Shown here: positions 10,149-34,948 of the stretch, one piece after another
Numbering within the stretch: the first letter of the stretch is position 1
Layout of the letters: the number at the start of each line of letters is the position of its first letter
Made by a program: the position numbers and the translations under genes
Notes under the pieces: model-generated
The model's input: the letters and a program-made list of their open reading frames with translations, nothing else
The model's database searches: none
Told to the model about the DNA's origin: nothing
Origin: Candidatus Nomurabacteria bacterium
GTDB lineage: Bacteria; Patescibacteriota; Minisyncoccia; Phycocordibacterales; UBA9973
Length of the DNA stretch: 42,512 nucleotides
Direction of reading: 5' to 3'
Assembly: GCA_963842815.1 (NCBI GenBank)
Contig: CAWJHU010000002.1
Span: 1 to 42,512 of the forward strand

Positions 10149-11700
<1,552 letters not shown>

Positions 11701-11870
11701 TTTGAAAATCGTTATAAAGTGCTTTGCATTTTATAGCTTATTGAGTCGGTATTGTGTAGCTCAATTGACTACACAATAGTTTTTATTCAAACTTAAAATG
11801 AGTAAGACTATATGGAAAGACATATAAAATAAAAAAGTTTATATAGAACGAAACAAAACATAGAACAGCA

Positions 11871-13331: not shown

Positions 13332-13402
13332 CGGGCCGTAGTATACCGGTCGTACGCATCCTTCGGGAGGATGTAGACTGGGTTCGATTCCCAGCGGCCC
13401 GA
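13332..13402 (+). tRNA. tRNA-Pro (CGG), CCA not encoded
   Basis: CGGGCCG/CGGCCCG acceptor stem; anticodon arm CATCC-TTCGGGA-GGATG; TTCGATT T-loop. Confidence 0.93.
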
Positions 13403-13426
13403 CAATTTGATATAATAAACTCACGA

Positions 13427-13512
13427 AATTATTTTTATCTGTGGCGGGTGATCGCACTCACATAGGCACATATGTTGGAGTTTCGCCATCACCCGCCTCA
13501 AATGAAAATAAT
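13427..13512 (+). ncRNA. Candidate unassigned hairpin RNA
   Basis: GGCGGGTGAT (13443-13452) pairs perfectly with ATCACCCGCC (13488-13497). Outer AATTATTTT/AAAATAATT pairing; TATAAT upstream; terminator downstream. Confidence 0.45.
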
Positions 13513-13516
13513 TCCT

Positions 13517-13544
13517 GCCCCGCCATCGGCGGGGTTTTTATTTT
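13517..13544 (+). terminator. Intrinsic terminator (also member of a short hairpin repeat family)
   Basis: CCCCGCC-ATC-GGCGGGG followed by TTTTTATTTT. Confidence 0.75.
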
Positions 13545-13717
13545 GCAAAGGAAAAGTTATCCACAGTTTTGCTTGGAAACTATTGTATTATCTTCTGATA
13601 TGCGAGATAATTAATATGTTCCCGCAATAATTATTTAAAAATATTTTATTTTTTTATTTGAAATATTTTGAGGTCGTATTATTGCAAACTAAATTAAAAA
13701 GTTAATTTATAAATACT

Positions 13718-13789
13718 ATGGCAAAGAAAAAAAAGGCTGCCAAGAAAGGAAAGAAAAAGGCTGCAAAAAAGGGAAAGAAGCGAGCATAG
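13718..13789 (+). CDS. 23-aa Lys/Ala-rich basic peptide (MAKKKKAAKKGKKKAAKKGKKRA), missed by the ORF track
   Basis: ATG..TAG in an otherwise empty AT-rich gap; internal KKAAKKGKK repeat with synonymous codon variation; own terminator. Confidence 0.7.
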   Translation: MAKKKKAAKKGKKKAAKKGKKRA

Positions 13790-13810
13790 TTTTTTCCCAC
13801 TTCTAAGAGA

Positions 13811-13837
13811 TCTCCCGCCAAAATCGGGGGATTTTTT
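13811..13837 (+). terminator. Intrinsic terminator after the basic peptide ORF
   Basis: TCTCCCG-CCAAAAT-CGGGGGA-TTTTTT. Confidence 0.65.
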
Positions 13838-13862
13838 AGTTTTTTATGCTAATATATTAATT

Positions 13863-16403
13863 ATGGGTTTATATGGCAAAATATTTGGGGATACAAGCTC
13901 CAAATTCATTAAAAATACCAAAAAAACAGTGGTTGAGATAAATGCTCTTGAGGCGGATATTTCAAAGTTGGCTGATGCTGATTTCCCGAAGAAAACACAA
14001 GAATTTAAAGACAGATTAGCTAAAGGCGAGACATTAGACGATATTTTGCCGGAGGCTTTTGCTTTGGTTCGGGAAGCGGCAAAAAGAAATTTAAGTGAAA
14101 GACATTTTGATGTTCAGCTAATAGGAGGCATAGCCCTGCATCAGGGCAGAATTGCCGAAATGAAAACCGGTGAAGGAAAAACTTTGGTGGCCACCCTGCC
14201 ACTTTATTTGAACGCGCTTATGGGAAAGGGTGCCCATCTGGTGACGGTCAATGATTATCTTGCACGTTTAGGCGCAGTGTTGATGGGGCAAGTCTATAAT
14301 TTTTTAGGACTGACTGTCGGCGTTATTAATTCGCAAAATGTTTCTTATTTATACGACCCGAAACATACTGAAGAAGATAAAGAACGCGACACCGTCGGAG
14401 AATTTAAAGTTGTTTATGATTTTTTAAAACCATGTTCGCGCAAGGAAGCCTATGCTGCAGATATTACCTACGGTACGAATCATGAATATGGTTTTGATTA
14501 TTTGCGAGACAATTTAGCCACTTCCATCAATGACCTTGTGCAGAGAGGACATTTTTTTGCCATCGTGGATGAAGTGGACTCCATTTTAATAGATGAGGCG
14601 CGTACTCCGCTCATCATTTCTTCCGCCTCCGGAGACTCCGAAGATTTTTATATTAAATTTTATCAAATTGCCAAACAATTAAAGAGAGACACCGATTACG
14701 AAGTGGATGAAAAGCTGAGAGCCATAACTTTGACGGATGCGGGCATAAGCAAGGCCGAACAGCTCTTGGGGGTGGAAAATATTTACACCGAAAAAGGCAT
14801 TAAATATGTCCATCATTTGGAAACGGCCGTTAAGGCGCAAGCTATTTTTGAAAGGGACAAGGATTATGTGGTAAAGGAAGGAGAGGTGATTATTGTTGAT
14901 CCTTTCACTGGGCGCCTTCAGCCAGGTAGGCGCTGGTCCGAAGGAATTCATCAGGCAATTGAGGCCAAAGAAGGCGTAAAAATTGAAAAAGAAACCCGCT
15001 CCTCCGGCTCTATTACTTTCCAGAATTATTTCAGATTTTATAAAAAACTTTCGGGTATGACAGGTACGGCGGAAACTTCCGCCGAAGAATTTTTGAAAGT
15101 TTATGGCTTGGATGTGATGGTCATACCCACTAATCGTCCGGTCATTCGAGAAGACCACTCGGATTTAATTTTCCAAAGTGAAACCGGTAAATTTAAAGCC
15201 ATCGCTAAAAAAATAAAAGAATTGAATGAAAAAGGCCAGCCGGTTTTAATCGGCACCATTTCCATTGAAAAAAATGAACTCCTTTCTGTTTATCTGAAAC
15301 AAGAGGGCGTGCCCCATGTCATTTTGAATGCCAAAAACCATGAGAAAGAAGGCGAAATAATTGCTCAAGCGGGGAAGAAAGGTGCAGTAACTATCGCCAC
15401 AAATATGGCTGGTCGTGGAATCGACATCAAGCTCGGAGGTAATCCGCACACAGAAGAAGATTATGAATTTGTGAAAAGCGCCGGAGGATTATTTGTGCTC
15501 GGCACTGAACGCCATGAAGCGAGACGCATAGATAATCAATTGCGAGGACGCGCCGGCAGACAGGGAGACCCGGGCGAAACGCAATTTTATGTTTCCCTGG
15601 AAGATGATTTAATGCGTGTTTTTGGTTCGGAGCGAATAAAAACAATGATGGGACGTTTCGGCATTCCGGAAGACCAGCCCATTGAGAATCGTTTTATTTC
15701 CAGGTCTCTTGAAAATGCCCAAGCCAAAATAGAAGGCTTTCATTTTGATGCCCGAAAAAATACGCTTGAATATGATGATGTGATGAACCATCAGCGTAAA
15801 ATTATTTATGAGAGGCGACAAAAAATGATGCTTTTTAACAAAGAAGAAATTGAAAATCTTTTGAAGCAAATTCTAGAAAACAGGAATGAAAAAGAAAAAT
15901 TAGAAAAAATAATTGAAGAAAAAAGAGAAAAACTTGGCGATGAAGGGTTCTTTGAAACAGTCCGCAGAATTGCTCTTTATACTACAGATACCCTTTGGAT
16001 GGAACACTTGGAAGCGATGGATTACCTCCGCTCCTCCGTCAACCTGCGCGCCTATGGCCAACGGGAACCGATTGTGGAGTATAAGAAAGACGGTTTAGCT
16101 ATGTTTAAAGAAATGGAAGAAACCTTTAAAGAACAGGTTTTATCGCTTATTCAAACTATAAATACTGAAAATAGGGTAAATATTCAAGTGGAAGCAAACG
16201 AACCGAAGCAAACCTTGGTTGAAAGCCATAATGAGCCGAAGGAATTTTCTGACACGAAAAAATCCATTGAAAAAAATCTTAATATCGGCCGAAATGATCC
16301 TTGCCCTTGTGGAGCCATTAATCCAGCCACCGGTGAAGTTTTTAAATGGAAAAAATGTGGAATGATCAATGCACCACAGCATCGCAAATCGTTGATTAAT
16401 TAA
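13863..16403 (+). CDS. secA: Preprotein translocase subunit SecA
   Basis: AEMKTGEGKT, DEVDSILIDEARTPLII, ATNMAGRG.DI, RRIDNQLRGRAGRQGDPG, GRNDPCPCG. Confidence 0.98.
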   Translation: MGLYGKIFGDTSSKFIKNTKKTVVEINALEADISKLADADFPKKTQEFKDRLAKGETLDDILPEAFALVREAAKRNLSERHFDVQLIGGIALHQGRIAEMKTGEGKTLVATLPLYLNALMGKGAHLVTVNDYLARLGAVLMGQVYNFLGLTVGVINSQNVSYLYDPKHTEEDKERDTVGEFKVVYDFLKPCSRKEAYAADITYGTNHEYGFDYLRDNLATSINDLVQRGHFFAIVDEVDSILIDEARTPLIISSASGDSEDFYIKFYQIAKQLKRDTDYEVDEKLRAITLTDAGISKAEQLLGVENIYTEKGIKYVHHLETAVKAQAIFERDKDYVVKEGEVIIVDPFTGRLQPGRRWSEGIHQAIEAKEGVKIEKETRSSGSITFQNYFRFYKKLSGMTGTAETSAEEFLKVYGLDVMVIPTNRPVIREDHSDLIFQSETGKFKAIAKKIKELNEKGQPVLIGTISIEKNELLSVYLKQEGVPHVILNAKNHEKEGEIIAQAGKKGAVTIATNMAGRGIDIKLGGNPHTEEDYEFVKSAGGLFVLGTERHEARRIDNQLRGRAGRQGDPGETQFYVSLEDDLMRVFGSERIKTMMGRFGIPEDQPIENRFISRSLENAQAKIEGFHFDARKNTLEYDDVMNHQRKIIYERRQKMMLFNKEEIENLLKQILENRNEKEKLEKIIEEKREKLGDEGFFETVRRIALYTTDTLWMEHLEAMDYLRSSVNLRAYGQREPIVEYKKDGLAMFKEMEETFKEQVLSLIQTINTENRVNIQVEANEPKQTLVESHNEPKEFSDTKKSIEKNLNIGRNDPCPCGAINPATGEVFKWKKCGMINAPQHRKSLIN

Positions 16404-34657: not shown

Positions 34658-34948
34658 ATGACTGAAAGTGTTGATACTTTTATTTCGAATGTGGATAAGC
34701 TCATTGTAAACCCGCTTATCATATTTCTTTTTGCTTTGGCAGTGGTGTACTTTTTGTATGGCGTATTTCAGTTTATTTCAAATTCGGAAAGCGAAGAAGC
34801 CAAAACAAAAGGCAAGAGCCATATGATCTGGGGAATTATCGGAATTGTCATAATGATGGGAGTGTTTACCATCCTGAATATGATTATGCGCACTTTCAAC
34901 ATACAAGGAATAAATCCGGAACAGGGGACTGTGGAAATAAATCCATAA
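34658..34948 (+). CDS. TrbC/VirB2-like pilin
   Basis: NPLIIFLFALA..YFLYGVFQFI..SEEAKTKGKSHMIWGIIG. Confidence 0.8.
   Translation: MTESVDTFISNVDKLIVNPLIIFLFALAVVYFLYGVFQFISNSESEEAKTKGKSHMIWGIIGIVIMMGVFTILNMIMRTFNIQGINPEQGTVEINP

Follow-up and report, generated by a model that had tools for sequence, protein, structure and literature searches.

Immediately upstream of secA in a Candidatus Nomurabacteria bacterium (645 kb, 38% G+C, three-contig assembly) lies a 23-codon open reading frame in which 14 codons specify lysine. Is such a frame a by-product of the spacer, a leader of secA or a gene in its own right, and if it is a gene, what could a peptide of this kind do? We considered these questions using the first 42,512 nucleotides of contig CAWJHU010000002.1 (assembly GCA_963842815.1), referred to here as the window, together with the rest of the genome and the genomes of related bacteria.

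The micro-ORF and its transcription signals

The micro-ORF extends from an ATG at 13718 to a TAG at 13787-13789, and its product consists of 14 Lys, 1 Arg, 5 Ala and 2 Gly in addition to Met. Fifteen of the 23 residues (~65%) are K or R, and the charge of the peptide is about +15. The preliminary description of this DNA had reported a stand-alone gene with 14 Lys and 1 Arg at this position, and translation bears out both the coordinates and the composition. Within the ORF, positions 13726-13779 form a 24-nt (8-codon) tandem repeat of 2.3 copies. When all 11,729 small ORFs of 12-80 aa in the whole 645-kb genome were screened, this was the sole one of at least 20 aa with at least 55% K+R. The ORF is located 2 kb from the 16S gene, adjoins a tRNA, and is flanked by the following features:

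13332-13403: tRNA-Pro, upstream of the micro-ORF
13427-13540: rod-like hairpin RNA of ~87 nt with its own -10 and terminator (z = -7.4)
13557-13565, + strand: TTATCCACA box, an exact match to the DnaA-box consensus; 17-18 nt separate it from the -35
2631-2639, 13557-13565 and 34690-34698: the TTATCCACA boxes in the window
13583-13611, + strand: predicted promoter, with -35 TTGTAT (13583-13588), a 17-nt spacer and -10 GATAAT (13606-13611)
13624-13685, + strand: 5'-terminal leader hairpin, with arms 13624-13631 and 13678-13685, beginning 12 nt after the -10
13718-13789, + strand: polylysine micro-ORF, 23 codons and TAG
13796-13804, + strand: pyrimidine motif CCCACTTCT, between stop codon and terminator
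13803-13845, + strand: intrinsic terminator, with a 15-pair stem (13803-13839) and a T-run (13840-13845)
13847-13855, + strand: extended -10 promoter of secA, TGCTAATAT, 7 nt before the secA ATG at 13863, present in all genus loci
13863-16403: secA, downstream of the micro-ORF

The promoter has the hallmarks of a sigma-70-type promoter, and alignment blocks ATTGT ... GATAATTA are conserved across it; its spacing would place the transcription start near 13618-13620. The TTATCCACA box, a putative DnaA-binding site, is near-invariant in 19 loci of the genus and keeps equal spacing in other families of the order. There are 24 perfect boxes genome-wide, compared with ~8 roughly estimated from base composition, and many of them lie just upstream of promoters; DnaA or another factor may be a general promoter-proximal regulator. 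An origin of replication in the window was considered and rejected, as DnaA boxes with at most one mismatch number 16 against 11.8 expected and do not cluster.

The leader hairpin is preserved as a structure. An invariant GGTCG (13672-13676) stands directly before its 3' arm, and across 19 sequences the eight pairs of the helix core are 84-100% paired, six of them at 100%, with compensatory double changes at four pairs. The covariation score of the helix is 0.254 compared with 0.150 in shuffles, of which 0 of 500 reach the observed value, and slid controls give at most 0.115. Behind the stop codon, CCCACTTCT recurs in many loci of several families. A hairpin with T-run follows 30 of the 38 orthologues described below under a strict perfect-stem rule, and the remaining eight have an imperfect hairpin and T-run, as read by eye; the stem sequences are unrelated between loci. 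The conserved -35/-10 upstream and the hairpin with T-run behind thus agree with the earlier proposal of a stand-alone unit having its own promoter and terminator.

The signals of secA itself are of a type common in this genome. A TGnTAnnnT motif precedes the ATG of an ORF of at least 100 aa by 6, 7 or 8 nt in 77, 24 and 16 cases, respectively, whereas other distances account for 11 or fewer cases each, mostly 1-6; the 6-8-nt spacing therefore marks 117 gene starts. Because the spacing peaks in this manner, leaderless starts appear to be the norm in the genome, and the start of secA is probably leaderless as well. The 3' end of the 16S rRNA (window 11640-11702) reads ...GGAAGCTGCTCGTGGAATAATTCAA and is missing the canonical CCUCC anti-Shine-Dalgarno, so that a Shine-Dalgarno sequence would not be expected before the micro-gene either.

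Conservation and coding character in related genomes

To follow the micro-ORF beyond this genome, we located secA in 40 relatives and read the DNA upstream. Among 30 related loci, drawn from the genus itself and from further families in the order, 25 carry an ORF on the secA strand that begins MA[A/K]KKK and consists almost wholly of K, A, R, T and V, at 61-452 nt from secA. The micro-ORF likewise precedes secA in eight further families of the order. An order-wide pattern search of 151 genomes returned 78 matches, compared with ~21 in a reversed control; of 30 loci fetched from this search, 14 hold K/R-rich micro-ORFs of the same type, and secA lies within 1.5 kb downstream in 11 of the 14 (three of the 11 being loci already known). 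At the level of the order, 33 of 36 orthologues share the strand of secA and lie a short way upstream of it. Other copies within the order stand alone and away from secA (L031, L034, L039), and stand-alone look-alikes with terminators, also away from secA, were found in other classes (L130, 34 aa; L144, 24 aa). Conservation of the ORF upstream of secA, on which the preliminary description had staked its proposal, is therefore borne out, with synteny and frame kept in more than 30 genomes.

As a control, we examined 60 regions upstream of secA outside the order, drawn from different orders within the class and from further classes within the phylum, and found an oligo-Lys ORF in only one of them (L096, genome G280 of another class), which is 10 aa long and has a strong Shine-Dalgarno sequence and a different flanking structure. 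This frequency argues that the micro-ORF is no by-product of AT-rich spacers and that it is a syntenic gene in the order. Among the five related loci with no ORF, the contig of L005 starts just behind the position of the ORF, and in L006, from a congener (G013), the upstream hairpin RNA is followed directly by secA. A pattern search of G013, which is 94% complete, gave no copy elsewhere, and in some families of the order the micro-ORF was not found by pattern; the gene may therefore be dispensable or its N-terminus variable.

In total, 38 orthologues were gathered, of 13-46 aa and 22 distinct lengths, with 14-37 aa occurring within a single genus. Their pooled composition is K 50%, A 23%, R 8%, T 7% and V 5%, and it is this composition that is conserved, while sequence and length are free to vary. 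Length changes arise via 8-codon tandem repeats. With a repeat unit of 24 nt, lengths that are always multiples of three are weaker evidence for translation than they might seem.

Other properties of the frame are more telling. Over 938 body codons from the 38 orthologues, frame 0 contains no Asp or Glu codon and no stop, whereas acidic codons number 60 in frame 1 and 230 in frame 2, and stops 26 and 28, respectively; the only hydrophobic residues encoded are V and a single I. C falls at codon position 2 in 316 instances, compared with 75 and 41 elsewhere, and G at positions 1 and 3. The start ATGGCN is invariant, and an in-frame stop stands immediately behind the basic tract in all 38. The 21 peptides that end in KKRA encode Ala as GCA, GCT or GCG and Arg as CGA, CGC or AGA, differences that are synonymous variation.

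Codon choice for lysine points in the same direction. AAG makes up 64% of Lys codons in the micro-ORFs, compared with 27% in the adjacent secA genes, and the longest A-run is at most 8 bases in every orthologue, whereas in simulations that redraw the Lys codons with the frequencies of secA the longest A-run averages 9.6 and ~9 ORFs have a run of at least 11. Because iterated AAA causes ribosomes to slide (PMC4363877), a bias to AAG and short A-runs are what would be expected of a translated polylysine gene. On this sequence evidence we regard the ORF as a real gene rather than a chance frame, and one that is very probably translated, in which case it would be among the shortest conserved bacterial proteins.

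The micro-gene has never been annotated. It had been described as lying below the cut-off of ORF callers, and gene callers did miss it; an exact look-up of ten orthologues in a collection of 15 billion proteins found none of them, although the gene is conserved across an order. The window peptide matched no Pfam or NCBIfam family and no PDB chain in a profile search (both at E up to 10), and a profile of 17 orthologues retrieved nothing from 5.8 billion protein clusters at E up to 0.01, searches that the low complexity of the peptide may blunt. No sequence membership in the Hc1/H1, bS22, bL37 or Thx families was found, nor did the searchable literature yield a description of such a CPR peptide.

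Candidate roles of the peptide

We give about even chances to the reading in which the peptide is a disordered polycation that coats nucleic acid, most likely for charge neutralisation or compaction of the nucleoid. The monocistronic micro-gene would be transcribed from its own promoter, ended by the intrinsic terminator and translated, and removal of Met1 before Ala2 would leave a 22-residue Lys/Ala peptide of about +15 and without a fold. Such a peptide could bind nucleic acids irrespective of their sequence, through the phosphate backbone, each copy neutralising ~15 phosphates (7-8 bp). Where cells are ultra-small and ribosomes few, DNA would presumably be the dominant polyanion, which would make neutralisation or compaction of the nucleoid the most likely role and RNA binding a secondary one, much as for a lysine protamine or a histone-H1 tail that stands alone. 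The leader hairpin, because it lies at the predicted 5' end of the short mRNA, would probably serve to stabilise it, and, given the TTATCCACA box, DnaA or another factor may activate the promoter.

The preliminary description had suggested two roles, a nucleoid-condensing peptide of the H1-tail type or an analogue of a small ribosomal protein, and both are still candidates. The pattern of variation is what leads us to prefer a non-specific polycation: since length ranges over 13-46 aa and composition is kept while sequence is not, we distinctly favour a free DNA- or RNA-coating peptide over a subunit in a fixed ribosomal slot. H1 tails and protamines evolve in the same manner, with composition kept and sequence and length free. 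Lys/Ala extensions beginning MA[AT]KKK also occur at the N-termini of RpoD (L044, L059, L145), a SWIB protein (L050) and HisRS (L147) in relatives, and the tract is therefore a putative general nucleic-acid-binding appendage. Several observations count against the polycation reading. A nucleoid protein, HU, is already present in the genome; the tight adjacency to secA across the order, which recurs in one genome of another class (G280), is not explained by a role in the nucleoid; and the mRNA has a leader of ~100 nt without Shine-Dalgarno in a genome dominated by leaderless starts.

Among characterised proteins, the C-terminal tail of H1, Chlamydia Hc1/Hc2 and Pseudomonas AlgP share with the peptide Lys/Ala(/Thr/Pro)-rich repeats as well as a history of repeat gain and loss with composition kept, and the same type of tail is the one fused to RpoD and SWIB in relatives. 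Hc1/Hc2, AlgP and H1-type proteins are at least 100 aa long, often have a second domain, and have demonstrated DNA condensation. The peptide differs in being a free tail of 13-46 aa, with neither a domain nor homology or a profile match, and is known here from its sequence. Protamines and the adenovirus mu core peptide are closer in format, being free, 19-50 aa long and more than 50% basic; they compact a genome to a very small size, and protamine sequences evolve fast. Unlike these Arg-rich, eukaryotic or viral, stage-restricted peptides, the micro-peptide is Lys-rich and bacterial.

A bolder version of this reading, which we consider doubtful, would make the peptide a "lysine protamine" that serves ultra-small CPR cells as their main genome condenser and neutraliser, at tens of thousands of copies, as a partial stand-in for polyamines and with a tie to replication through DnaA. 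Under it, two distant CPR classes would keep the micro-gene before secA because of a second function or a regulatory tie to SecA. No spermidine synthase was found in the genome, and a decarboxylase of the Orn/Arg/DAP type is present.

A ribosomal role is comparably unlikely but deserves serious weighing. The peptide could be a tiny polybasic ribosomal protein, analogous to bS22/eL41, Thx or bL37, that fills a pocket of the rRNA. These proteins are, like the peptide, 23-33 aa long with ~60% Lys+Arg, and like the micro-gene they are usually missed by annotation (PMC10618245). The bS22 of Borrelia, encoded by a 93-nt gene from start to stop, was unannotated and found by cryo-EM only, and its discoverers predicted that it would occur in other bacteria (PMC10618245); at 23 aa and ~65% K+R, the peptide fits its ~30 aa and 61% K/R in size and charge. 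The gene's location 2 kb from 16S and beside a tRNA would suit such a role. A search of the whole genome for PF08213, the family of bS22 (mycobacteria, Bacteroidota, Borrelia), gave no match at E up to 1, and bS21 (PF01165) was not found in it. Across the order bS21 exceeds the cut-off in 2 of 61 genomes, compared with 94 of 151 in a sample of the phylum, indicating that it is either divergent or lost, and a 16S 3' end without CCUCC suggests an unusual platform region.

No clean pattern of replacement emerges for bS21, since the micro-gene and bS21 occur together in three genomes (G198, G288, G280) and bS21 accompanies similar micro-genes in other classes, and the apparent absence of the micro-gene from G013 is likewise awkward for a ribosomal protein. 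Known micro ribosomal proteins are of fixed length and near-invariant, Borrelia bS22 having one substitution across the genus (PMC10618245), in contrast to the range of 14-37 aa seen here within one genus. The peptide is instead low-complexity Lys/Ala, is missing hydrophobic or aromatic anchor residues, and with the E-value limit relaxed to 10 still matches no profile of Pfam, NCBIfam or PDB.

Another possibility is a link to export or the membrane, in which the peptide would bind acidic phospholipids or SecA/SecYEG, or a highly transcribed unit would set the promoter context of secA. We judge this improbable. It would account for the gene's place beside secA at 33 of the 36 loci in the order, it agrees with the distant L096, which keeps an oligo-Lys ORF before secA despite different signals and a strong Shine-Dalgarno sequence, and the T-run of the terminator abuts the secA -10. 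A signal peptide or hydrophobic segment is missing, though, stand-alone copies exist away from secA (the five loci named above), and across most of the phylum secA lacks a neighbour of this kind.

Less probable still is a non-coding small RNA whose purine-rich segment happens to be open. The structured 5' hairpin, the terminator and the lack of a Shine-Dalgarno sequence would be in keeping with an sRNA, purine-rich tracts can be open in several frames from composition alone, and 24-nt repeats underlie the length changes. Such an RNA would not be expected to avoid acidic codons and stops in frame 0 only, to keep C and G in strict phase, to vary its Arg and Ala codons synonymously, or to place an invariant ATGGCN and an in-frame stop around the basic tract in 38 of 38 cases.

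The least credible proposal is that read-through into secA is controlled in cis by the micro-ORF, acting as a leader-peptide attenuator or as an arrest peptide like SecM. As in SecM-secA and leader attenuators, a small ORF sits directly upstream of secA with a terminator hairpin between them, and the KKRA ending in the genus recalls the RA of the RAGP/RAPP arrest motifs (PMC12992588). We discard attenuation because secA has its own promoter, a conserved extended -10 at the standard leaderless distance behind a full terminator, because MFE and centroid folds keep that terminator intact and the ORF weakly paired with no competing structure, because the ORF lacks a signal sequence or membrane-spanning segment through which force could be sensed, and because its codons steer clear of slippery or stalling A-runs. 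Nor is an arrest motif conserved, as KKRA is not kept outside the genus and other families end in RRR, RKR or KKK, and the distance between ORF and secA varies from 61 to 452 nt.

CPR/Patescibacteria comprise a large share of bacterial diversity, and the volume of their ultra-small cells is ~0.01 cubic micrometre. If the micro-gene is translated, the favoured polycation would be a candidate answer to how DNA is packed and neutralised in cells of this size; alternatively, the peptide would count as a new component of ribosomes in a lineage without an anti-Shine-Dalgarno and with mostly leaderless mRNAs. Either way, small ORFs in these genomes call for searches that take composition into account.

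Neighbouring RNA and related small units

The hairpin RNA between tRNA-Pro and the micro-gene is conserved in the genus, and it stands directly before secA both in L006, where the micro-gene is missing, and in L026, from another family. Rfam has no match to it, and nothing significant was obtained for 13380-13870. SRP RNA (RF00169) was not found anywhere in the genome, and the hairpin RNA may be a divergent SRP RNA.

The GGUCG hairpin behind promoters with a TTATCCACA box is shared more widely. At least four genes have it in their leaders (among them G000 C1:266700, C1:282203 and C2:13557), and a pattern search gave five matches compared with none in the control; it may be an uncatalogued 5'-UTR motif. 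The same design of TTATCCACA box, promoter, GGTCG hairpin and terminator surrounds a 44-aa hyper-acidic micro-ORF (G000 C1:160522-160656; locus L151, C1:160395-160700) upstream of a class A PBP-like gene. This ORF has no Pfam match and is present in only 3 of 41 relatives, and the idea that it encodes a conserved acidic partner was dropped. Outside the window, at G000 C2:93773-93832, is another very small basic ORF, which is 19 aa long and starts MAKGDGHRKEKKK.
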